Assembly: GCA_964555265.1 (NCBI GenBank)
Contig: CAZKRS010000001.1
Span: 1-31,960, forward strand
From: an uncultured bacterium
GTDB lineage: Bacteria > T1Sed10-126
Length of the DNA: 31,960 nt
Direction: 5' to 3'
Below are positions 6,708 to 28,203 of this stretch, one piece after another. Positions within the stretch are counted from its first letter, which is position 1; every line of letters starts with the position of its first letter. The translations under genes were made by a program, and so were the position numbers. A model generated the notes under the pieces. That model was not told where the DNA came from and made no database searches. It saw only the letters and a list, made by a program, of their open reading frames with translations.

Positions 6708-6709
6708 AA

Positions 6710-6901
6710 TCAGGCGAGTTCCTCTTCCAGGGCCTCCCGCCCCCGGTTAAGAGCATCTACAAACCCGTTAAACTGGTCAATTTCCAGGGTAAAATGAACA
6801 AAATTATACTGAACAACAACTCCATTCTCTGCCGGATCAAACCAGACCGAAATATAATCGCCGTCCTCATCCTCAAACTCAGCCAGGTTAACAATGGACA
6901 T
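6710..6901 (-). CDS. Small acidic hypothetical protein (63 aa)
   Basis: Strong GAGGAGG RBS; stop 2 nt before the FIST start; 15 D/E against 2 R and 0 K. Confidence 0.7.
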   Translation of the reverse strand: MSIVNLAEFEDEDGDYISVWFDPAENGVVVQYNFVHFTLEIDQFNGFVDALNRGREALEEELA

Positions 6902-7013
6902 CGCTTTTTCCTCCTCTTAAAGGTATGTAAAATATTCGAAGTAAATTTATCTTATTTTAACGGTTTCTTCCAGAATTTACAGACATGCCCGGGTAACCGG
7001 GATTTATTTAAAC

Positions 7014-7282
7014 TGTGCTCTCCCGGGGTTCTGGTTACAGATCATCTGTATTCTCCCAGTAATCCATTTACAGATAAATGAGGTTTCTGATTATCGGAAT
7101 TTTATAACCCGCAAGGGACAGGAGGTTCCTGTTATGCGGGATATAAACCTCGGAGCAGCCCGGAGGGCTGCGAGAATGAGATCATCAGAGACCTTATTTA
7201 TTCTTCCCTGGTTTGTAACCAGAACCCTGGGAGAGCACAGATCATCCCTTATCATAAGCACTCTCTGGCGCCCTCATTCTCG
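7014..7282. mobile_element. Relic end of a related element, interrupted by MITE copy 1
   Basis: 7014-7039 is 25/26 identical to the right TIR of MITE copy 1. With the MITE and one TSD removed, CTCTG-N5-CTCATTCTCG (7263-7282) falls at the same offset (23 nt after the TIR) as in the MITE. Confidence 0.55.
7047..7239 (+). mobile_element. 193-bp MITE, copy 1 (TGT...ACA ends, IS481-like by inference)
   Basis: Imperfect 26-bp TIRs (18/26; 11/13 at the tips); 7-bp direct repeat GATCATC at 7040-7046 and 7240-7246; 192/193 identical to the reverse complement of 18269-18461. Confidence 0.93.
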
Positions 7283-7412
7283 AACGCCATCCTTCCGGTG
7301 GGTTCTCACTTTCTCAGGATAGATGTTTCCCATCAGGAAAATATGCGGTAAAATGGTATGCTGGGTATTATCTGTTTATCCACCTCTGGCAGACAATAAC
7401 GGGAGGTTAACG

Positions 7413-7553
7413 ATGGCCAGTCAGCTAACCGAACAGGCCCGCCGGGAAGTCCTGGAGCTTGAAGACGTCGAGTTGGTCTTTGATCCTTCCCGGTCAAAAG
7501 ATATGATTACGGAAGATGGACAGGCCAGGTTGAACGAACCGGGCTATATGTAA
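7413..7553 (+). pseudogene. 46-aa ORF resembling the C-terminal half of DUF59/MIP18 (Fe-S assembly SufT-like) proteins
   Basis: MASQLTEQARREVLELEDVELVFDPSRSKDMITEDGQARL resembles the DUF59 tail after the CP motif (..VELVxDPPW..DM..E.A...L); no Cys and no N-terminal half; GGGAGG RBS present. Confidence 0.5.
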
Positions 7554-7583
7554 TGAAAATTTAGTTGCAGGGAGTCTGTCAAG

Positions 7584-11754: not shown

Positions 11755-13107
11755 TTGCCTGCCTATTTTATGAATTCGGGGGTAATAAATATTAAATTAC
11801 TACGCACTTTTTGCCTCTATATGCTCCTTTTCTTCATCTTTTTAATCTCCGGCTGCGCTCCATCTCTTGACCATTACGAACCGATCTATGAATCACTGCA
11901 CCAGGGAGAATATGAAGAGGTAATCCGAATTCTCGAAGAAGCTCGCGAAGAGAACCGTTACGAGTATAAGGATCGGGTGCTGTATTCCCTGGAAAAAGGT
12001 CTGGCTCTTCATTACGCCGGTCTTTTCGAACGGAGCAACGAACGTTTTGCCCTCGCCGACGAATATATCACTGAACTTTATACCCGTCGTATTTCGGAAG
12101 TGGGATTCTCGTTTTTGACTAATGACAACGATCTCCCCTACCCCGGTGAACCATACGAAGATATCTATTTAAATGTTTTTAAAGCTTTAAATTTTGCGGC
12201 CCTGCGCGATCCACAGGCTGTTTTTGTGGAAGTTAGAAAACTGGATGAAAAATTGTCCTATATGGAAAGAAGATTCCGGGATCTGGCTGAAAGCTACAGT
12301 TCGGGAGCAGCCGGTGAGCTGGGGGAAGATATTGATATGGAAGCCGCAAGGGAAGAAAAAGATTTTCAGCCTGAACAAACACAGTTTCACAGCAGCGCCC
12401 TGGGGCGTTACCTGGGGTTCATTACCCGCCTGCAACTTGGCGAAAAAGACGGTGCAAGAATAGATCTGGAGAATATGCAGCAGGCGTTCTTAAATCAACC
12501 CGCCATCTATAATTTTGATTTTCCCGAACTTCCTTCACTTAATGAACCCCCCCGGGGACAAACCCGGGTTCATTTTTTGGCCGCGCTGGGAAAAGGCCCG
12601 GAAAAATACCAGGTGGAAGATAGAATATCTTATAAGGATCTTTACATAACAATTGCTTATCCCCGACTGCAAAAGCGAGGTACTTCAATTACAAAAGTGG
12701 AGATTTTAAAAAATGGTAACACTGCTGCCACGCTGGAAAAACTGGAAGATGTAAATCTTGTGGCTGAGAATGTTTTTCAGCTCCACCAGCCTTTAATTCA
12801 TGCTAAAGCCCTGGTCCGGGGGATCGGTAAGGCCCTAATCAGCCGGGAAGCGAGAGCTCAAACTGATAATCCCTTCCTGCAGCTTTTTATTCTGGGTCTC
12901 CAGGAAGCGACCGAACAGGCCGATCTGCGCACTACCCGGCTGCTCCCGGGAGAATTTCACGTCGGCTATCATACGGTCCCCACCGGCGAAGAAATTACAT
13001 ACACCGCAAGGTATTATGCGGATGGGTCTTTAATAAAAAGCGAAACAATTACAAAAACTTTTTCTCGTAATGACTTGAACCTTGTTCGTTTGCAAAGTTT
13101 CAAGTAA
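11755..13107 (+). CDS. COG3014-family TPR-like lipoprotein
   Basis: Lipobox ISGC; LYSLEKGLALHYAG helical repeat, PYPGEPYEDIYLN, EQADLRTTRLLP; typical neighbour of LpoB-family genes; start uncertain (TTG 11755 or ATG 11770). Confidence 0.7.
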   Translation: MPAYFMNSGVINIKLLRTFCLYMLLFFIFLISGCAPSLDHYEPIYESLHQGEYEEVIRILEEAREENRYEYKDRVLYSLEKGLALHYAGLFERSNERFALADEYITELYTRRISEVGFSFLTNDNDLPYPGEPYEDIYLNVFKALNFAALRDPQAVFVEVRKLDEKLSYMERRFRDLAESYSSGAAGELGEDIDMEAAREEKDFQPEQTQFHSSALGRYLGFITRLQLGEKDGARIDLENMQQAFLNQPAIYNFDFPELPSLNEPPRGQTRVHFLAALGKGPEKYQVEDRISYKDLYITIAYPRLQKRGTSITKVEILKNGNTAATLEKLEDVNLVAENVFQLHQPLIHAKALVRGIGKALISREARAQTDNPFLQLFILGLQEATEQADLRTTRLLPGEFHVGYHTVPTGEEITYTARYYADGSLIKSETITKTFSRNDLNLVRLQSFK

Positions 13108-15878: not shown

Positions 15879-16733
15879 TTATCCCGGTTCGACATGTATA
15901 AATATCCGCTCGATTTTATTTATTTCTTTTAGTTTTTCTCTTAATTTCTCTTCCGCCGCATGAACTTCTCCCAGCGGGCGGCTGGATTCTGTCTCCACGA
16001 TAAGTGAAATATGAACCCGGGGACCAACAAAATGGGTCTTTATACCGGTCGGGCCGTAAAAATTATTATCATCGGCCACAATTTTCTTTATTTTATCAAC
16101 CAGGTCCTCGGGGGCGGCCCGGCCCGTGATATGGTTTACGTTCTCAATTAAAGTCCCTACTCCTACTTTCATAATTGCGAAGGCCATCAACAGGGCCACC
16201 AGGGGATCCAACCAGCGCCAGCCCACTGCCGCCGTAACAAGAGCAACCAGCACAGTCAGATCGGCAAGAATATCACTGGCCTGGTCCCGCCCCAGTGCTT
16301 TCACAGCGGGAGAATGCAACTTTTTACCTTCCCGCATGCAGTGCCAGGAAAGGACAGCTTTTATCGCCATTGAACCGGCAATTACCACAATCCCGGCCGG
16401 ATTAAGTGTTACCCGCCGACCGTAGTAAAAAGTCCAGCCGGCGTCATACAGAACATACAGTCCCGAAACTGTAATTATAAGCCCCACAAATATTCCCACC
16501 AGTGATTCAAAACGCTGGTGACCCTCGGGATGATTGGCATCCGGAGGTTGAATGCTCACCCATAGCCCCAGGTAAAGAACAATACCGTATAAAAAATCAG
16601 CCGCATTGTTAAAACCAACCGACCTCAAAGCCGAGGAATCAAGCCAGAATCCCACCCATAACTTGAGAACCGATAATCCCAGGCTGATGATCAATAATAA
16701 ATATACTGGCCGCAATACCTGCTTGCTCTTCAA
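15879..16733 (-). CDS. Cation diffusion facilitator (MntE/FieF-like metal exporter)
   Basis: GFNNAAD (TM2), DANHPEGHQRFE, DQASD (TM5), C-terminal dimerisation domain ending IHVEP. Confidence 0.93.
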   Translation of the reverse strand: MKSKQVLRPVYLLLIISLGLSVLKLWVGFWLDSSALRSVGFNNAADFLYGIVLYLGLWVSIQPPDANHPEGHQRFESLVGIFVGLIITVSGLYVLYDAGWTFYYGRRVTLNPAGIVVIAGSMAIKAVLSWHCMREGKKLHSPAVKALGRDQASDILADLTVLVALVTAAVGWRWLDPLVALLMAFAIMKVGVGTLIENVNHITGRAAPEDLVDKIKKIVADDNNFYGPTGIKTHFVGPRVHISLIVETESSRPLGEVHAAEEKLREKLKEINKIERIFIHVEPG

Positions 16734-16975
16734 TTTTATCCCTCATCCGGGGCTGAAAAAGATTAATTTTTAAAGATAATAACCCGATATTATATCACCC
16801 TTGAATTGTTTTTTGAAAATTAATGATTTAAAAATCAATCCCAGGCCTTTATCCTTAAAGTACAGGGGCGGTATATTTCAATTCTAAAATTTTCGCCGGG
16901 CGCCATTTTTTACGGGACATTTTAAATATAATGCGTTAAGCTAAATCACAATAAAAATTGCAGCGGAGGTTTGAA

Positions 16976-18106
16976 ATGAATCCCGTTAATTCCGTTTTAG
17001 GGCCCCGCCGGGTGACCTGGGAAATGACGCAGGTCAGCACAATTGACTGTCTTCACTGGCGGATAGAGAGCAAAAACAAGCCCGATCCGGATGAACTAAC
17101 CACCAGGGAAGGTAAGAACTTAATAGATCAACTGGATGAGCTGGGCACCAGGAGATTGATCCTGGCCGGCGGTGATCCTCTTGAACGCAACGATCTTGGC
17201 GAGCTAATACAATACGCCCGGGAAAAAAACATAAAATTAACCCTCCAGGCAACTCCCTCGGATAAACTTGTATCAAAAGTTATCAATGATTTTTCCCGGG
17301 AAGGTTTTTTTCGGATCAGTCTCCCCCTTGACGCTCCTTATCCCGAACTGCACAACAAATTCTGGAACAAAAAAAATGTTTTCCAGGATACAATCGAACT
17401 TGCGTATGAAATCCGGGAAAATGAAATGCCCCTGCAGATTAACACCGTGATTACCAGCCAGAGTGCTCCCCTGATGGCTGATCTATTTTTGAAAATTTCT
17501 TCTTTAAATCCCGTGACCTGGAAAATTTATTTCCTGGTCCCCACCGGCGGTGATGAAACTTTCCAGCCCCCCGGATTCCACGTTACAAGAATAATTTTTG
17601 AAGAAATTTACGAGCTGGAGCAAGAGGTAAATTTTGAAATATTAGCGGTGGAAGCTCCCTACTACAACAGGTTCTGGCTGGAAAATAAAACTGAAGAACT
17701 GGGGATTAACCTCGAGCAGTATACTTCGACACTAAATCCACTTTCCGTGGAAAAAGTTGATGAGTTTCTGCGGAAAAAAATAACGTTCAACCCGAAAAGA
17801 TTTCGCCGCCAGCCGGGGCGGGAGAGTTTGTTCATAAATCACCGGGGAACGGTTTACCCGGGCCGGTTCTTACCGCTGGAATGCGGCAACCTGCGCACGC
17901 AATCAATCAGGGAGATATTCCGGGACTCCCCCGTGTTAAAACAACTGCGAAATCCTTTAGAACTTGGTGGCTGCTGTCAAAAAACCAACTGCTGGGCCCG
18001 GGAAATATGTGGGGGATCCCGGGGCCGGGCTTACTTCTTTTCAGGCGACCACATGGGAACCGATCCTCTCTGTTTCTACCATGCCTTAAAAACCATGCGA
18101 CCTTAG
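16976..18106 (+). CDS. Radical SAM/SPASM-fold protein (TIGR04053/AhbD-NirJ-like) with degenerate SAM-cluster motif
   Basis: WEMTQVSTIDCLHWR where CxxxCxxC is expected; GGDPL, QINTVIT, FLVPTG, EAPYY and C-terminal CGGSRGRAY..DPLC retained; GGAGGT RBS before ATG 16976. Confidence 0.85.
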   Translation: MNPVNSVLGPRRVTWEMTQVSTIDCLHWRIESKNKPDPDELTTREGKNLIDQLDELGTRRLILAGGDPLERNDLGELIQYAREKNIKLTLQATPSDKLVSKVINDFSREGFFRISLPLDAPYPELHNKFWNKKNVFQDTIELAYEIRENEMPLQINTVITSQSAPLMADLFLKISSLNPVTWKIYFLVPTGGDETFQPPGFHVTRIIFEEIYELEQEVNFEILAVEAPYYNRFWLENKTEELGINLEQYTSTLNPLSVEKVDEFLRKKITFNPKRFRRQPGRESLFINHRGTVYPGRFLPLECGNLRTQSIREIFRDSPVLKQLRNPLELGGCCQKTNCWAREICGGSRGRAYFFSGDHMGTDPLCFYHALKTMRP

Positions 18107-18165
18107 AAGTGTGAAAGTGTGAAAGTGTGAAAGTGTGAAAGTGTGAAAGTGTGAAAGTGTGAAAG
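18107..18165. repeat. Octanucleotide tandem repeat (AAGTGTGA) x7 plus AAG
   Basis: Seven perfect units beginning at the base after the TAG stop at 18104-18106. Confidence 0.98.
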
Positions 18166-18268
18166 CAAAAACGGGAAAATCTAACAGGTCAGAAGGCGAA
18201 CTGGCGCAAAAATTTTGGCTAAAATCAAAGACGACGAAAGTCAAACACCTACCGGTCTAAAATTTATG

Positions 18269-18461
18269 TGTGCTCTCCCAGGGTTTTGGTTACAAACCAG
18301 GGAAGAATAAATAAGGTCTCTGATGATCTCATTCTCGCAGCCCTCCGGGCTGCTCCGAGGTTTATATCCCGCATAACAGGAACCTCCTGTCCCTTGCGGG
18401 TTATAAAATTCCGATAATCAGAAACCTCATTTATCTGTAAATGGATTACTGGGAGAATACA
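18269..18461 (-). mobile_element. 193-bp MITE, copy 2 (inverted relative to copy 1)
   Basis: One mismatch to copy 1 (at 18286); 7-bp direct repeat ATTTATG at 18262-18268 and 18462-18468. Confidence 0.93.
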
Positions 18462-18463
18462 AT

Positions 18464-18685
18464 TTATGATTGGCTGAGCGGGCAGCTTCCGTCGGTGCAA
18501 TCCCGGGGCTGGCAGGCCGGCGGCGGGGCTTGAGACCGGTTTCCCACGGCAAACCTGCTCAACTGCCGGGTAGTCTCTAAACTGCCGCAGCGGGGGCATT
18601 CAGCCTCCTTATCACGGTTATCGCTGCCTCGTCTGAGACTAAAGCCCTCGCCACATTCATTGCAGTTGTAACGATAAGTGGGCAT
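18464..18685 (-). CDS. FmdB-family zinc-ribbon protein
   Basis: MPTYRYNCNECG...CPRCGS signature, plus Cys58/63/68 tail; AAGGAGG RBS. Confidence 0.88.
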   Translation of the reverse strand: MPTYRYNCNECGEGFSLRRGSDNRDKEAECPRCGSLETTRQLSRFAVGNRSQAPPPACQPRDCTDGSCPLSQS

Positions 18686-18720
18686 TGTTTTCCTCCTTAA
18701 GAACCGTTAGAAAATATGCG

Positions 18721-20016
18721 CTAAAAACTGTAGCGCAGACGGCTGTAGAAAAGATCGTTATCGTCAAGGCCGCCAAAACGGGTATCATCATATTCGGAAT
18801 CAAAATGAAGCGTTCCGGCGTAGATGTTGATTGAATCACTCCACTCGTAATCCGCTTCGAGGCGAAGATTGTAGTCTTCTTCGGTAATACCAAATAATCC
18901 CCGTGCTTCAACCACCAGGCGATCATCCCAGTATTCACGGGTAGTTGCCACCTGGAGGCGATATTTATCCCGCTCGGTGGCCGGATGGTCATCGTCCAGA
19001 TCATTTTCTGCTTGCCGGCGTGCTTGTGAAGCGTCGTCATCGACCAGCCAGGTCCCCTGGAGCATATAGGTTACCGTGGGCCGGGTCTGGTATTCAAGAC
19101 CGGCCATGAGCTGATACTGGTCGGAGGGCAGGTTCGGATTAGAACCGGCATCCTCGGCCCTGATATCCTCATAAGCTCCCTCAAGCCAGACAATCGCCCC
19201 ATACAGCGGCCCCCGGAGCGAAACTCCGCCTGCAGCCAGTTCAGGGTGGTATACCTCCGAATCAGAATCGACGGTTCTAACCGCCCGGGGCGTTCCCGTG
19301 AACCCCCGGTAGCCGTAGAGTGCTGTCTCCCAGCGACCAAAATTTCTGTGGACTCGCAGGTGAACTTCTCCATCCGAAATATCATCCCGTGGTCTTGCCA
19401 CTCCCGGCAGGGTATCTCCGGCAGAGCGCAACTCGCCCTCTCCCGGGTGATATACCGGCAGGATTAGTCCCCGGGGCGTCCGGTCGGCTTCAAACCTGGG
19501 CATCAGTGCGAGATCAAAGTTAAAATGATCCAGGTAACCGGCCAGGCGGAGAGCATCGTTAGGAGCCTTCAAATACTCAAGATCCCGCCCCAGGAAAAAA
19601 GAACGGTAATCCTTGGTAAACCTGTCGTTAACAAATTCATAGCGAGCGGGACCCCAGCTTAAAGTCTGCCGCCCCACCGTCAGATCATAACGGTGACCAA
19701 CGGGCAGCATCAGGGAACCTTCGCGCAACTCAACCTCCACGTCCCGCCGGCCCTCATGTTTGATAAGTCCCCGGAGGGTTGCCTGGGAACCGGCGGTGCC
19801 ATACCAGCGGTTCTCAAGCATAATCCTGTTCTCTTCGAGAACGTTTCGCTCTTCTATCGGCCCGTCGTTATCGTAGCGAACTCCCAGGGCCGGCTCAACA
19901 TAACCCTCAACGTTGAGGTTACCGTAGACAGGCGCGCCACTGAGGGCAAACAGCAGTGCCCCGAAAATGAGCAGTGAAAGAACAGCAGCAAGTTTAGGCT
20001 TATCACAAAGTTTCAC
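18721..20016 (-). CDS. Outer-membrane beta-barrel protein (DUF1302-like)
   Basis: Signal peptide; VGRQTLSWG; amphipathic strands; C-terminal beta-signal YSRLRYSF; context with LolA-like and MMPL genes. Confidence 0.7.
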   Translation of the reverse strand: MKLCDKPKLAAVLSLLIFGALLFALSGAPVYGNLNVEGYVEPALGVRYDNDGPIEERNVLEENRIMLENRWYGTAGSQATLRGLIKHEGRRDVEVELREGSLMLPVGHRYDLTVGRQTLSWGPARYEFVNDRFTKDYRSFFLGRDLEYLKAPNDALRLAGYLDHFNFDLALMPRFEADRTPRGLILPVYHPGEGELRSAGDTLPGVARPRDDISDGEVHLRVHRNFGRWETALYGYRGFTGTPRAVRTVDSDSEVYHPELAAGGVSLRGPLYGAIVWLEGAYEDIRAEDAGSNPNLPSDQYQLMAGLEYQTRPTVTYMLQGTWLVDDDASQARRQAENDLDDDHPATERDKYRLQVATTREYWDDRLVVEARGLFGITEEDYNLRLEADYEWSDSINIYAGTLHFDSEYDDTRFGGLDDNDLFYSRLRYSF

Positions 20017-20029
20017 GGCTATCCCTCCT

Positions 20030-20848
20030 TTACGGTTCTATCCACCGGGTTGGCGGACGGCGCAAATACCTCTCGGTAAAGATGTCCTCTCCAATCCCGA
20101 GATCGTATTCAATATCACTCATCTCAGCAACCGTATGCCCCTCCGTCCGGTGGTTCTTAGCTTTCTGAACCGTGGGAGTGACGTAACCGTCAATCTCCTC
20201 CCACTCCTCGAGAGTCAGGGTGCGGTGCTTGTCGCCACCGGGAGTATAGAATACACCTTTTACCGGCAGTTTTGTTTCCCGGGAGATATGCATCTCGTAG
20301 TAAGAAAATTCAACCAGGTCTTCATCTTTTGGATTTCCCCGGATAATATCCACGGTTTCACCGTCGATATGATCCATGCCGACGTAGGCGAAGGTATCCG
20401 CCTCGGGATGCCGGCCAGTCATGTCCTCGTAGGTAAAGTTAGAACCGGCAAAACTGTTTCTTTTCTGCCGACCGGTTATCCGCTGGACCATATCCATAGC
20501 CGGCAGATAGAGCCAGCGATCGTCATCATCACCGGGATAGGTATGAACCATGAAGACCATCCGGCGCAGATCGGCCGGCTGGCGAAAATAGGAATAATAT
20601 TTCTGACGATCCTCTCCCGTATTTTTCCGGAGCAGGGTAAGTTCCCTGGTTCGAACATTTCCCCGCCGGTCTTCAATCCTCATTGTTGCCTGCCAGCGGA
20701 CATCATCCCCCGGAAGATAGGCGGTCCGGTAGGACTCATAGGCCAGCCGGGCCGGATCAGGCTCCTCGGCCGGCAATTCAGCCGGTGTAAGCAAAAATAC
20801 AGCAAAAGTAACGGCTAACATGAAATATAACTTGAAATTATTCATCAT
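20030..20848 (-). CDS. LolA-like periplasmic carrier (outer membrane lipoprotein-sorting protein family)
   Basis: Signal peptide; YFRQPADLR, DDDRWLYLPA, RITGRQKRNSFAGSNFTYEDM signature. Confidence 0.88.
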   Translation of the reverse strand: MMNNFKLYFMLAVTFAVFLLTPAELPAEEPDPARLAYESYRTAYLPGDDVRWQATMRIEDRRGNVRTRELTLLRKNTGEDRQKYYSYFRQPADLRRMVFMVHTYPGDDDDRWLYLPAMDMVQRITGRQKRNSFAGSNFTYEDMTGRHPEADTFAYVGMDHIDGETVDIIRGNPKDEDLVEFSYYEMHISRETKLPVKGVFYTPGGDKHRTLTLEEWEEIDGYVTPTVQKAKNHRTEGHTVAEMSDIEYDLGIGEDIFTERYLRRPPTRWIEP

Positions 20849-20869
20849 AATCCCTCCTGAATAAGGTAA

Positions 20870-21073
20870 CTAATTTTTGTTATCAACCGATTCAAGTCCA
20901 CATTTCCCATAAAACCATTTGGCCGGACAGGTGCCGGTGAAGGCCGACTGGATCAAATTCAAAGAGACAAAACCTGTCAGCCAGAGCCACATATCAGAAT
21001 GAAATACTGCCAGCAGAACTGATATTCCCACCACTATCCCGGCCGTCAGTCGCAGAGCTTCTTCAACTGTCAT
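20870..21073 (-). CDS. DUF2892 (YgaP-like) small membrane protein
   Basis: Two TM helices, LIQSAFTGTCP motif (Cys49). Confidence 0.88.
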   Translation of the reverse strand: MTVEEALRLTAGIVVGISVLLAVFHSDMWLWLTGFVSLNLIQSAFTGTCPAKWFYGKCGLESVDNKN

Positions 21074-21074
21074 T

Positions 21075-23414
21075 TTAATCCACCTCTCCCGAAGAAAGAT
21101 AAGGGTGAAAAACTTCGAAAAACGAGAATAAACCCAGCAGCGTTGCCACGCCGGAAAGGGCCATGATAGTAATCATGAACACGCCCACGGTAACATAGGG
21201 TCTGAGCGGTGCTAAAAGCAGGGGCGTAAATCCAACCGCTATCACGATTGCATTTCGAGCAATCGCCCGGGCCGGTTCGCCGGAAATCAGCTCCCGGACC
21301 CGCTCCCACTGTTCATCCGCAGACAACCCGGGGTTCTCAAGTGCCACTTCCCGCATTATCTGGCGGCCACGTTGAATGAAATGAATCGCAAAATCTACCG
21401 CAATTCCAATACTCAACGCCGACAGGACAGCCACAGGCATATCATAGTCCTTCCCAATCCAGCCGACCATTCCATAAACTACCACCAGGGTAAAGGTCAG
21501 AGGAACCAGAGCCAACAGCGCCCAGCGCAGGCTGCGAAACAAAAACAGCATCATGATAAATATTGCCACGTAACTGCTGGCCAGGGCCCAGGCCATCCCC
21601 CAGACCATTACCTGCTGCCAGGCTACGTTGACTACGGTAATGCCTCCCCACTCGGGCTCAGCGGCCAGCTGAAGACCGGAGCCGGCAACAAGTTCCTCAG
21701 TTTTTTCTCGAACGGCGGACATAACCTGGTTATCCCCGCTCTGCAGGTGAAACCAGACGTTCACTTTTTGCCCGTCCGAAGAGACCAGCCGGAACAGATC
21801 CTCGGGGTTGCCGCTGTTTTCATATAGAAACAAATATTGCTGAACGGCCGCCGGCGAACCCGGAAAGTTCTCCTCGGCTTCCCCGGCGTGCAGTTCATGA
21901 TGTATCTTGCTGACTATCCCCGGCAGGGCGGTTGTTTTTCCAACCTCCTCCAGGGACTGTATTTCAGTTGTCAGGCGCTCCAATTCCTGCAAATTTTCCG
22001 GAGAATACCATCCACCGGCCTCCTTTTCCAGGACCATGTAGGCCGGATAGGAACCGGCAAAAGCCTCGTTGAAATAATCGTCCGCCTGGCGGATTGGATG
22101 GCCGCCCAAAAACCAGCGGGTAGGATTATCGTTCACCTGGATAAGCCCCATCCCGTAAATTCCCAGGAGAATAACTACCAGACCGAGGGAAAGAATCAGG
22201 TAAGGATGATCCCGTATCACACAGCTGCAGTCATGACAGCAGCTAACCAGCCGGCCTATCAGTGATTCTTCACCTTTCTTTGCCCGGGGCTTGGGCTGCC
22301 ATACGGAAGCACCGGCCGGCAACAGCGTCAGGGTGGTCAGAAAGGCCAGCAGAATTCCACTGGCCACGGCAATTCCAAATACCCTTACCGGCGGTATCCC
22401 GGTCAGACTCAGGGAAACAAAACCGGCGGCGGAAGTTAAACTGGTAAAAAGTATGGGGAAAAATATCTCCTCATATACCTCCGCCAGGACCTTCCGGCTG
22501 GAACTACCGGGACTCATCCTGTCGGTAAAATCACTCAATATATGGATGCTGTCAACTACGGCCACCGGAAGCAGAAATATTGAGATCATGGAACTCATAA
22601 TATGTATTTCAAACCCCAGGCCAATCACCCCCCCCATCGTCCACAATACGGTGATAACCGCCTGAAATAAAGCCCAGAAAACGAGACTGAAACTCCGGAA
22701 AAACAGGAGCATTAAAATGCCGATAACCACGAAAGCTATCGGGGCGGAGGTGGCCATCTGCTGGAACATCTTGTGGCCAAAAGTTTCTTCAGCCACCGGC
22801 AGGCCGGTAACATGTATTTTGCCCTCTGCCTGCTCCTGTTCCGACCAGAACTGGTGAATAGCCTGGCGCAGGGGGAAACTGTATTTTTTCTCCTCGATGG
22901 GAACAAACAGGGCCATCGCCCCCGACTGGCGGTTTAAAACCATCTCGGAAAGGACGGGATGTTTTTCAACCCGGTCGATTAAATTTTCCACCGCCGGGCC
23001 GTCCTCGGGCGGACTGCGCAGGAAACGATCAACATTAATGCTCCCGGCAACACCTTCTATGTCGTCGCTTGTATAGACGCTCAATATATCTTCGTAGACA
23101 ACTCCTTCGTGCCTCTCCACCATCTTCACCAGGTCATAGAGAACCTCCAGGCGGCGGGCAGTAATTTCCCGGTTATCTTCGGGAGGTTCAAGAGCGACCG
23201 CCACCATGTCATGGAGAAAAAACTCATCCTCGATCTGCCGGTCAAGAACCCGGGCGGGATGGTCCTCACGGAGCATATCCTCGGGATCCGTATTTATCTG
23301 GATATTTGGAAACTGAAACAGCATGAAAGCTGTGACAGCTATAACCAGTCCAAACACCACGTAAGGATGATCCCAGCAAAATCTTGAAATAGCACTTTTC
23401 CATGTAAACTTCAT
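21075..23414 (-). CDS. MMPL/RND-superfamily transporter
   Basis: Two repeats of TM plus periplasmic domain plus 5 TM; VVDSIH (TM4) and GIAVDFAIH (TM10) motifs; GGAG RBS favours ATG 23414 over GTG 23423. Confidence 0.92.
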   Translation of the reverse strand: MKFTWKSAISRFCWDHPYVVFGLVIAVTAFMLFQFPNIQINTDPEDMLREDHPARVLDRQIEDEFFLHDMVAVALEPPEDNREITARRLEVLYDLVKMVERHEGVVYEDILSVYTSDDIEGVAGSINVDRFLRSPPEDGPAVENLIDRVEKHPVLSEMVLNRQSGAMALFVPIEEKKYSFPLRQAIHQFWSEQEQAEGKIHVTGLPVAEETFGHKMFQQMATSAPIAFVVIGILMLLFFRSFSLVFWALFQAVITVLWTMGGVIGLGFEIHIMSSMISIFLLPVAVVDSIHILSDFTDRMSPGSSSRKVLAEVYEEIFFPILFTSLTSAAGFVSLSLTGIPPVRVFGIAVASGILLAFLTTLTLLPAGASVWQPKPRAKKGEESLIGRLVSCCHDCSCVIRDHPYLILSLGLVVILLGIYGMGLIQVNDNPTRWFLGGHPIRQADDYFNEAFAGSYPAYMVLEKEAGGWYSPENLQELERLTTEIQSLEEVGKTTALPGIVSKIHHELHAGEAEENFPGSPAAVQQYLFLYENSGNPEDLFRLVSSDGQKVNVWFHLQSGDNQVMSAVREKTEELVAGSGLQLAAEPEWGGITVVNVAWQQVMVWGMAWALASSYVAIFIMMLFLFRSLRWALLALVPLTFTLVVVYGMVGWIGKDYDMPVAVLSALSIGIAVDFAIHFIQRGRQIMREVALENPGLSADEQWERVRELISGEPARAIARNAIVIAVGFTPLLLAPLRPYVTVGVFMITIMALSGVATLLGLFSFFEVFHPYLSSGEVD

Positions 23415-23443
23415 ATCTATCACTCCATTAGTTTAACTTGAAT

Positions 23444-27342: not shown

Positions 27343-28203
27343 TTATTTCCCGAGATCTTTTACAAACTTTTGTTTGGAAACTTCCCAGCGGGGAGCCAGC
27401 AGCAACCGGCGGGGGGCGTCACCGATCAGGCGGTGAATAACTGTTTTGTCAGGCAAAATATCCAGGGCCCGTTTTACGATCTCAACATATTCCTCGTAAG
27501 AGAGAGGACTGTATTCGCCGGCCCGGTAACGGCGGGCCAGCGGCGTTCCCCGGACAACCTGCAGATGATGAAACTTTATCCCCTCAAGTTTATACCGGTT
27601 AATCTCCCGAACGGACTTCTCCATATCCACCAGGTCTTCGCCGGGAAGACCAAAAATAAGATGGGCACAAACGTTAAGACCAGGATATTCTTTGAGCCTC
27701 CCGAGAGCTTCCTGGTAGTCAGAAAAACCATGACCGCGGTTAATTCGAGCAAGCGTCCGCTCATTTGCCGTCTGCTGGCCAATTTCAACCCAGATTTCTC
27801 GCCCGGCGGCAGAATATGCCCCCAGTAAATCAATCACCTCTTCTGGCAGGCAATCGGGCCGGGTTCCGATACAGAGACCAAGGACATCATCAAGAACAAG
27901 GGCCCGCTCATAGAACTCTTTTAACTCTTCAACCGGCCCATAGGTGTTGGTATGAGCCTGGAAATAAACCAGGAATTTCTCTGCGTTTTTTCTCCGGAAT
28001 ATTTTTTTGCCTGCTTCAACCTGTTCTTCAATACTGATGTTTTTATCAACATACGGGGGCTGAAAAGCGTCATTACGGCAGTAGATGCAGCCGCCCCGCC
28101 CCACTTCACCGTCAATATTCGGGCAGGTAAACCCGGCGTCGACCGGGATTTTGTAGACTTTCCGGCCAAATTTTTCCCGAACGTAATCAGCAAAACTGCG
28201 CAT
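27343..28203 (-). CDS. TIGR01212 (YhcC/YtqA) family radical SAM protein
   Basis: DAGFTCPNIDG...GGCIYC (Cx11Cx2C), YFQAHTNTY, GTRPDC, HLIFGLPGE, VIHRL. Confidence 0.92.
   Translation of the reverse strand: MRSFADYVREKFGRKVYKIPVDAGFTCPNIDGEVGRGGCIYCRNDAFQPPYVDKNISIEEQVEAGKKIFRRKNAEKFLVYFQAHTNTYGPVEELKEFYERALVLDDVLGLCIGTRPDCLPEEVIDLLGAYSAAGREIWVEIGQQTANERTLARINRGHGFSDYQEALGRLKEYPGLNVCAHLIFGLPGEDLVDMEKSVREINRYKLEGIKFHHLQVVRGTPLARRYRAGEYSPLSYEEYVEIVKRALDILPDKTVIHRLIGDAPRRLLLAPRWEVSKQKFVKDLGK

Follow-up and report, generated by a model that had tools for sequence, protein, structure and literature searches.

A radical SAM/SPASM-type protein of an uncultured bacterium that lacks two of the three radical-SAM cysteines and keeps a conserved AuxII-type site

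We analyzed a stretch of DNA from an uncultured bacterium (GTDB lineage T1Sed10-126; GenBank assembly GCA_964555265.1, contig CAZKRS010000001.1, positions 1 to 31,960), which over its whole length of 31,960 nucleotides we call the window, and in it a gene for a 376-residue protein of the radical S-adenosylmethionine (SAM)/SPASM type, here termed pseudo-rSAM. The protein has lost two of the three cysteines of the CX3CX2C motif, which in radical SAM enzymes ligates the SAM-binding [4Fe-4S] cluster needed for radical chemistry. The loss is old enough to be shared with its orthologues, the gene is under purifying selection, and the four cysteines of a C-terminal auxiliary cluster II (AuxII)-type site are kept. 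The reading that we consider probable is that pseudo-rSAM is a selectively retained protein that would no longer be capable of radical chemistry and would still carry an AuxII-type Fe–S site. Its specific role, including any cooperation with the Fe/Mn-type CDF cation exporter encoded beside it, is a matter of speculation.

Results

Loss of the radical-SAM cysteines

The loop that holds the cysteine triad in canonical relatives reads S21-T-I-D-C25-L-H-W28 in pseudo-rSAM. Ser-21 is encoded by AGC (17036–17038), Cys-25 by TGT (17048–17050), and Trp-28 by TGG (17057–17059), and both AGC and TGG are a single substitution away from a cysteine codon, just as a first-pass annotation of this DNA, made from its letters alone, had noted. 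Cysteine stands at all three positions in 140 of 140 canonical sequences of TIGR04053, the best-matching curated family, and Cys-25 is the sole conserved cysteine within residues 1–300 of pseudo-rSAM and its orthologues. Of the 163 alignment columns with at least 90% conservation among the canonical sequences, pseudo-rSAM keeps 81; the invariant (100%) columns that are altered in it are C21S, C28W, S117P, D127N, R130W, R231N, G283E, S296G, and G297R.

Relatives were sought by a word-indexed search of 5.8 billion clustered proteins, a full hidden Markov model (HMM) profile scan of 1.84 billion representatives, one GTDB genome scan, and two JGI metagenome scans. The word-indexed search returned only two close relatives. 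P0002 (75% identity, 373 amino acids), from an ENA metagenome contig (locus L001), has the loop SSVNCMHW. P0003 (65% identity), of which the N-terminal 213 amino acids are present at a contig end in an NCBI metagenome-assembled genome (GCA_051744565.1; locus L002), has GSLNCKHW. The matches that follow these two are canonical TIGR04053 proteins, 33–36% identical to pseudo-rSAM and with CX3CX2C intact. The HMM scan added P0127 alone. Its predicted protein (330 amino acids; L083, 27–1139, GCA_964491415.1, contig CAZBGO010000044.1) begins at an internal methionine, hiding 40 N-terminal residues that include the loop; the extended frame encodes 370 amino acids, with the N-terminus ...FWELDAGSSFDCTHCRS, and an ENA protein of identical sequence, P0297, confirms it. 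The loop of this lineage, SSFDCTHC, has the form S-x3-C-x2-C, and the protein aligns to pseudo-rSAM almost without gaps. In a neighbor-joining analysis of 77 diverse family members, it joins the window clade (pseudo-rSAM, P0002, and P0003) in 99 of 100 bootstraps, and we refer to it as the sister lineage. The GTDB genome scan and the two JGI metagenome scans yielded no lineage member beyond P0002, P0003, and P0127/P0297. Two JGI metagenome matches were rejected as members; they are ordinary peptide-maturase-type radical SAM/SPASM proteins whose CNLHCNYC motif is intact and which merely share NCWARFIC.

The sister lineage makes the order of the losses readable. Position 21 is encoded by AGC, AGC, and GGC in pseudo-rSAM, P0002, and P0003, versus AGT in the sister, and position 28 by TGG in all three, versus TGC in the sister. 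Because the sister has S-x3-C-x2-C, the first cysteine appears to have been lost before the third. The ancestor would have been a TIGR04053/AhbD-type radical SAM/SPASM enzyme whose three-cysteine site was dismantled stepwise: a TGY to AGY change (Cys-21 to Ser) in the ancestor common to the window clade and the sister, a later TGC to TGG change (Cys-28 to Trp) in the window clade, and an AGC to GGC change (Ser-21 to Gly) in P0003. The proposal of the first-pass annotation that two cysteines were lost independently agrees with the sister carrying only the first loss.

The remainder of the SAM side has decayed in a complementary way. GGDP, the family form of the SAM-binding GGE motif, is invariant (100%) among canonical members. 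Pseudo-rSAM (P0001 in our set) and P0002 keep it, whereas P0003 has GNDP and the sister CSEV at this place. LQINT is kept in pseudo-rSAM and P0002 and is replaced by LKVVS in the sister. The window clade has kept GGDP and LQINT and lost two cysteines, whereas the sister has kept two cysteines and lost GGDP and LQINT, as would be expected if radical chemistry had already become dispensable in their common ancestor. The degenerate state is common to three independent assemblies, and a sequencing or assembly error was rejected on that ground.

The AuxII-type cysteine site

That the C-terminal auxiliary-cluster cysteines persist had been remarked at the outset, and they do so beyond the window: the string CCQKTNCWAREICGGS...DPLC contains C333, C334, C339, C345, and C366, and the last four are kept in pseudo-rSAM, P0002, and the sister lineage. 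We assigned these four to AuxII following the CX2CX5CX20–38C site of the heme synthase AhbD, which every AhbD has, whereas four additional cysteines, those of auxiliary cluster I (AuxI), occur in some AhbDs only (Fix et al. 2023, PMC10452713). The first spacing of the site is x4 in pseudo-rSAM versus x2 in canonical TIGR04053 proteins. Ser-348, which comes after CX5C-x2, sits at an AuxI-ligand position, as it does in canonical TIGR04053 proteins and in the AhbDs of non-methanogens. Because this serine replaces an AuxI ligand, only an AuxII-type site is expected, and the C-terminal domain is, to judge from its cysteines, Twitch-like with a single putative cluster. We infer that one [4Fe-4S] cluster is still held in the altered Cx4C site. 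In AhbD itself, a C23A/C26A variant from which the radical-SAM cluster had been removed could still be purified and held its auxiliary clusters (Fix et al. 2023, PMC10452713).

The AuxII segment is also the most constrained part of the protein. The ratio of nonsynonymous to synonymous substitution rates (dN/dS, or omega) is 0.08 in the SPASM part, the lowest in the gene, and identity to the sister is 53% over residues 281–372 versus 20–26% elsewhere. Among the TIGR04053-like sequences examined, the signature Cx4C-W-A-R-x-I-C-G-G-S...G-T-D-P-L-C-F-Y occurs in the window clade and the sister only.

Reading frame and selection

The gene is an unbroken frame for 376 amino acids preceded by a strong ribosome-binding site, as first described. 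Its Shine–Dalgarno sequence, GGAGG, is separated by 6 nt from the ATG at 16976 and is conserved at this position in L001 and L002. An alternative in-frame TTG at 16958 would lengthen the protein by 6 residues; the ATG is favored because of the Shine–Dalgarno position and the N-termini of the orthologues. GC content, overall and at third codon positions, is typical for the window, and recent horizontal import of the gene was rejected for this reason. A perfect tandem array of 7.4 copies of the 8-nt unit AAGTGTGA (18107–18165) begins one base past the stop codon, and a degenerate array, GTGTGAAAGTGAAAAAGTGTGAAAGTGTGAAAGTGAAAG, stands at the same place after the orthologue in L001, with a copy number unlike that in the window.

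We estimated dN/dS by the Nei–Gojobori method (NG86), pairwise among the window, L001, and L002. For pseudo-rSAM, the values are 0.12 (window versus L001), 0.20 (window versus L002), and 0.26 (L001 versus L002), all of them rough because dS, at 1.1–1.4, is saturated. Where dS is saturated, the uncorrected pN/pS is the conservative measure, and it reached a maximum of 0.34–0.59 over 1000 codon bootstraps. Within the gene, omega is highest (0.20) in the N-terminal 60 codons. The neighboring genes, compared between the window and L001, give 0.075 (CDF), 0.07 (MMPL), 0.055 (LolA-like), 0.17 (Zn-ribbon), and 0.20 (YgaP-like). The purifying constraint on pseudo-rSAM is real, and it is weaker than that on core genes. 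A fresh pseudogene was rejected, given a loop conserved in the orthologues, these dN/dS values, and the intact frame. The first-pass annotation had favored a retained pseudo-enzyme over a fresh pseudogene or an error, and had proposed collecting homologues without the motif and estimating dN/dS; P0002 and P0003, which share the degenerate loop, and the values of 0.12–0.26 both bear it out.

Family and fold

Pseudo-rSAM is matched by the Pfam models Radical_SAM (PF04055; 5.5e-13, 49.9 bits against a gathering score of 29.5) and SPASM (PF13186; 1.2e-5, 26.0 bits against 21.5, residues 282–339), and it does not contain the full 7–8-cysteine AuxI plus AuxII motif. The family first suggested for it, TIGR04053/AhbD/NirJ-like SPASM enzymes, is the one that NCBIfam returns: the top match is TIGR04053, with 288.6 bits over its full length (residues 10–369), short of the cut-off of 395, and next come AhbD (TIGR04545; 201.3 bits, cut-off 500), NirJ2 (152 bits), and then NirJ and NirJ1. 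TIGR04347, named "pseudo-SAM/SPASM protein," matches only partially, with 81.9 bits against a cut-off of 525, so pseudo-rSAM is not a member. By score, the protein falls in no curated equivalog.

An AlphaFold2 model built from an 80-sequence alignment has a predicted local distance difference test score (pLDDT) of 91.1 and a predicted template-modeling score (pTM) of 0.90, with confidence dipping solely near residues 21–30 and 191–200 and at the termini. In a Foldseek search of the PDB, the SPASM/Twitch radical SAM enzymes SuiB, PqqE, SkfB, BlsE, anSME, and CteB came first; for the barrel alone, viperin and MoaA follow, and the listed matches to SuiB, PqqE, SkfB, anSME, viperin, and MoaA have E values of 1e-14 to 1e-8. 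The modeled fold is that of a radical SAM/SPASM enzyme, and profile and fold alike place the protein among those with a radical SAM core, a partial TIM barrel.

Triad loss elsewhere in the family

Loss of the radical site with retention of AuxII recurs in the TIGR04053-like family. We surveyed 136 representatives of 50%-identity clusters in which the N-terminus is present. The CX3CX2C motif is incomplete in 16 of them (about 12%, the window clade not counted), yet in every one of the 16 the four AuxII cysteines are present (P0139, P0140, P0162, P0184, P0191, P0206, P0221, P0228, P0231, P0241, P0244, P0250, P0252, P0253, P0259, and P0260). Their triad states include SCC, CCH, CDC, NCS, WWW (one representative, W-x3-W-x2-W), and ICY, and in some of them the triad has no cysteine left. 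Nine were scanned (P0139, P0191, P0206, P0221, P0231, P0241, P0244, P0253, and P0259), and each has TIGR04053, below its cut-off, and not TIGR04347, as its best match. P0206 (L085, 6001–7146; also L086 and L087) is unchanged on five contigs, and in L085 and L087, where the contig reaches far enough, it lies two genes from a gene of VIT1, an Fe/Mn transporter family, and a cytochrome P450 gene, an anecdotal second co-occurrence with a metal exporter. Other degenerate lineages lie near MFS, GDPD, or TauE genes.

P0121 (L090, 254–2647; CDLACSHC) is the closest intact relative of the clade. A second radical SAM gene directly follows it, and the pair resembles the AhbC/AhbD or NirJ1/NirJ2 arrangement.

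The canonical TIGR04053 loci (L004–L082, mostly Bacillaceae) are flanked by a conserved gene set in 48–64 of 79 cases. From a reading of representative sequences, we take these genes to encode MoaA, MoeA, a DUF59/SufT-like protein, a di-iron protein like RIC/ScdA, and a regulator of the Crp/Fnr type that has cysteines near its C-terminus; MobB joins them in 32 loci. Such a neighborhood would be an anaerobic-respiration, molybdenum-cofactor, and Fe–S-repair set, which agrees with a published proposal that Gram-positives use AhbD-like proteins to make heme anaerobically (PMC13564367). The genomic context of pseudo-rSAM differs: canonical genes stand beside the Fnr-like/MoaA set and none beside a CDF gene, whereas pseudo-rSAM stands beside one.

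Genomic neighborhood

The CDF gene is divergent from pseudo-rSAM (Table 1). In NCBIfam, its product comes closest to MamM, FieF, MntE, and MamB (about 100 bits for each model, all below cut-off) rather than to the Zn or Co/Ni types. By eye, the sites in transmembrane helices 2 and 5 read NxxxD and DxxxD, a pattern that we take to be an Mn-type signature. The CDF orthologues share 84% (L001) and 73% (L002) identity with it, and the divergent arrangement is the same in all three genomes. Synteny in L001 and L002 also covers the LPP20-like, FecR-like, Zn-ribbon, 431-amino acid, LolA-like, YgaP-like, and MMPL genes. Because the whole neighborhood is syntenic, the adjacency to CDF may simply reflect shared ancestry and lends no independent support to a functional link; of the connection to a metal exporter that the first-pass annotation had raised, what holds in all three genomes is the adjacency. 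Nor does the association extend to the wider family, where none of the 79 canonical loci has a CDF homologue within 10 kb.

Parts of the intergenic region between the two genes are conserved as blocks in the window and L001, and less clearly in L002. It contains one sigma-70-like site, directed toward CDF, and scans for promoters and terminators did not rise above background. No riboswitch or other known RNA matched near pseudo-rSAM or CDF in Rfam at gathering or E ≤ 1 thresholds, and comparison of the region among the window, L001, and L002 revealed no clear shared operator.

Table 1. Features of the pseudo-rSAM locus (positions in the window)
Feature	Position	Strand	Basis
CDF cation-efflux gene (284 amino acids), divergent	15879..16733	-	Pfam Cation_efflux and ZT_dimer
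Divergent intergenic region, 242 bp, CDF/pseudo-rSAM	16734..16975	.	Block conservation, promoter scan, Rfam
Shine–Dalgarno GGAGG	16965..16969	+	Sequence reading; 6 nt upstream of the ATG
Pseudo-rSAM gene (376 amino acids; without the CX3CX2C triad), ATG to stop codon	16976..18106	+	Open reading frame, translation, Pfam, NCBIfam, AlphaFold2, Foldseek
Loop S21-T-I-D-C25-L-H-W28 (AGC...TGT...TGG)	17036..17059	+	Sequence and family alignment
G65-G66-D67-P68, family form of the SAM-binding GGE motif, kept	17168..17179	+	Alignment
C303 (LPLECGN), extra conserved SPASM-region cysteine	17882..17884	+	Cys in pseudo-rSAM, P0002, and sister; Ala, Val, or Cys in canonical members
AuxII-type site C334-x4-C339-x5-C345-x20-C366, extra C333	17972..18073	+	Codons read; canonical columns 100% Cys

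Synonymous sites have not diverged evenly between the window and L001 over 15879–23423: dS is 1.25–1.44 for CDF and pseudo-rSAM and 0.2–0.7 for the operon of the 431-residue open reading frame, LolA-like, YgaP-like, and MMPL genes, which are 90–94% identical in amino acid sequence. This suggests recombination homogenizing the MMPL operon or a separate history for the CDF/pseudo-rSAM pair.

An intact paralogue, which the first-pass annotation had proposed to look for, is absent from the 32-kb window. The sole other radical SAM gene (27343–28203, minus strand; Radical_SAM and Radical_SAM_C) is of an unrelated TIGR01212 type with a long-spaced motif, CPNIDGEVGRGGCIYC, and lies between an FAD oxidoreductase gene and 2-oxoacid:ferredoxin oxidoreductase genes. 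No intact paralogue adjoins the gene in L001, L002, L083, or the three other degenerate lineages examined. At the sister locus, L083, the upstream side ends at the contig end, and genes for a HEAT-repeat protein and TauE lie downstream.

The window also carries MlaEFDCA, LpoB, LolA-like, MMPL, 2-oxoacid:ferredoxin oxidoreductase, IlvD, and DapF genes, and we read it as a piece of the chromosome of a diderm, anaerobe-like bacterium. After IlvD relatives of 69–89% identity, matches to IlvD drop to about 60% and are spread over many phyla. Two open reading frames, 11755–13107 (plus strand, 450 amino acids) and 18721–20016 (minus strand, 431 amino acids), have no Pfam or NCBIfam match; the latter lies within the LolA-like/MMPL operon and is 90% identical in L001. 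About 870 bp at 6708–7583, between a FIST-domain gene and mlaE, hold only short open reading frames (at most 95 amino acids) and have no Rfam match.

Discussion

In the scheme that we propose, the partial TIM barrel, the SPASM/Twitch fold, and the AuxII site were retained after the triad was lost. SAM cleavage is, we infer, absent from the protein, which would produce no 5′-deoxyadenosyl radicals and could act as a non-radical Fe–S protein: a ligand-binding factor, one responsive to redox or Fe–S status, or a scaffold. The sensor (of Fe–S or tetrapyrroles), chaperone, and scaffold roles raised by the first-pass annotation are speculative. Replacement of many invariant residues of the canonical proteins around the barrel (R130W, R231N, G283E, S296G, and G297R) makes it less likely that the ancestral substrate is still bound, and we therefore favor a non-radical role in Fe–S binding or redox response.

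Several observations weigh against this reading. The clade is tiny, with three orthologues (one of them partial) and one sister among about 15 billion proteins, and the grouping of the sister with it could partly reflect long-branch attraction. Saturation of dS blurs the estimates of constraint. The protein is 75% identical to its orthologue in L001, versus 84–94% for most neighbors, and it sits on a branch roughly 1.4 times as long as the median. The window clade still has GGDP and further SAM-side motifs, and it may bind SAM without a cluster. Finally, occupancy of the AuxII site is judged by homology only.

It is the faster evolution, together with the sub-cut-off family score and the very small clade, that would be expected of a slowly decaying pseudogene or of a sequencing or assembly artifact. 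Such an origin is hard to credit at all, because four independent assemblies all preserve the open frame, the substitutions are repeated in the orthologues, omega is 0.12–0.26 even with saturated dS, the Shine–Dalgarno sequence is conserved, and the AuxII cysteines are invariant. It is a little easier, though still very unlikely, to suppose that pseudo-rSAM is an active radical SAM enzyme with unconventional ligands, namely Cys-25 with His-27, Ser-21, or residues elsewhere. Non-canonical cluster motifs exist in the radical SAM superfamily, and GGDP, LQINT, and His-27 are retained in the window clade. However, position 21 is glycine in P0003, Trp-28 is unable to ligate iron, and no conserved cysteine other than Cys-25 is found in the first 300 residues; the loss of GGDP from the sister as well fits a relaxed constraint on SAM chemistry throughout the lineage.

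The other alternatives accept that catalysis is gone and differ in what the protein would do instead. It could be the non-catalytic partner, or a regulatory subunit, of an intact TIGR04053/AhbD-type paralogue whose gene lies elsewhere in the genome. One active and one dead subunit would then form a heteromer, with AuxII as an electron conduit or the dead subunit as a substrate holder. This would account for purifying selection without catalysis. Paired radical SAM genes do occur in the family, as P0121 shows, and in the GeoRSP systems of NCBIfam (TIGR04303/TIGR04304) a radical SAM/SPASM protein is paired with a SPASM-only protein, both models matching the C-terminus of pseudo-rSAM. Nevertheless, the lack of an intact paralogue in the window, and next to the gene in the six other loci and lineages named above, leaves a heteromer unlikely. 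We would give an equally small chance to the possibility that pseudo-rSAM works with the divergent Fe/Mn-type CDF in metal homeostasis, for example as an Fe–S-based sensor or metallochaperone. The divergent arrangement in all three genomes, the affinity of the exporter to MamM, FieF, and MntE, the similarly high dS of the two genes against L001 (1.25 and 1.44, versus 0.2–0.7 in the downstream MMPL operon), and the position of the independently degenerate P0206 two genes from VIT1 in at least two contigs are all in its favor. Opposing it are the synteny of the region as a whole, the absence of CDF from the 79 canonical surroundings, the MFS, GDPD, and TauE neighbors of other degenerate lineages, and an intergenic region in which neither Rfam nor the alignment revealed a riboswitch or shared operator. 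A broader form of this idea, that triad-less, AuxII-keeping TIGR04053/AhbD-like proteins are a coherent class that senses or chaperones iron, Fe–S clusters, or tetrapyrroles together with Fe/Mn exporters (CDF and VIT1), seems to us rather improbable; if it were true, pseudo-rSAM, for which a stepwise loss is documented, would be one of the clearest examples.

Under the reading that we prefer, a retained non-radical Fe–S protein, pseudo-rSAM is an unusually clean case of a radical SAM enzyme turned pseudo-enzyme, with an order of losses that can be read from the sister, complementary losses in the two lineages, and AuxII as the most constrained part. Its practical limits are the great rarity of the lineage and its origin in uncultured bacteria. 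The finding that about 12% of related clusters have lost the triad and kept AuxII points to an uncharacterized, non-radical job for the SPASM/Twitch Fe–S module. It also bears on annotation, as profile-driven pipelines label pseudo-rSAM and its relatives "radical SAM protein" or "AdoMet-dependent heme synthase" despite the lost catalytic-cluster site. A literature search for TIGR04053 or TIGR04347 found no mention and was swamped by matches to "pseudo-sample," and one for radical SAM pseudoenzymes returned only irrelevant papers. A review of haloarchaeal annotation is silent on cluster-less homologues.

Among known systems, the closest is TIGR04053 (the BA_1875 family, often auto-annotated "AdoMet-dependent heme synthase"), whose members are 33–36% identical to pseudo-rSAM and share its fold, the GGDP, LQINT, and FFLVPTG-like core motifs, the four AuxII cysteines, and the serine at the AuxI-ligand position. 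Unlike them, pseudo-rSAM has lost two of the three radical-SAM cysteines, has Cx4C rather than Cx2C at the start of AuxII, and scores below the family cut-off. The pseudo-SAM/SPASM kind as such is already known in annotation from TIGR04347 of the Halobacteria, the only curated precedent found, although to judge from the searchable literature it is uncharacterized. As its curated name indicates, TIGR04347 would resemble pseudo-rSAM in a radical SAM/SPASM-like architecture without the cysteine triad. The window lineage appears to have arisen independently of TIGR04347, because pseudo-rSAM and the nine scanned degenerate lineages all match TIGR04053 best. This independent origin, the distinct AuxII spacing, and the traceable order of cysteine losses are what is new here.

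The AhbD heme b synthases of Methanosarcina barkeri and Desulfovibrio share with pseudo-rSAM the SPASM/Twitch domain and an AuxII-type site, and in the AhbDs of non-methanogenic archaea the AuxI ligands are missing, as they are in pseudo-rSAM (PMC10452713). AhbD, however, needs its CX3CX2C cluster for the decarboxylation of Fe-coproporphyrin III, whereas pseudo-rSAM does not have this motif, lies far under the 500-bit cut-off, and has no heme-pathway genes among the neighbors annotated in the window. A precedent of a different kind is provided by HemW/RSAD1, HemN-like heme chaperones in which a radical SAM fold from a tetrapyrrole-related family has been turned into a binding and transfer protein rather than the ancestral enzyme (PMC10114718). 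These belong to the HemN-like subfamily and have no SPASM domain, and their likeness to pseudo-rSAM would be one of functional analogy only.

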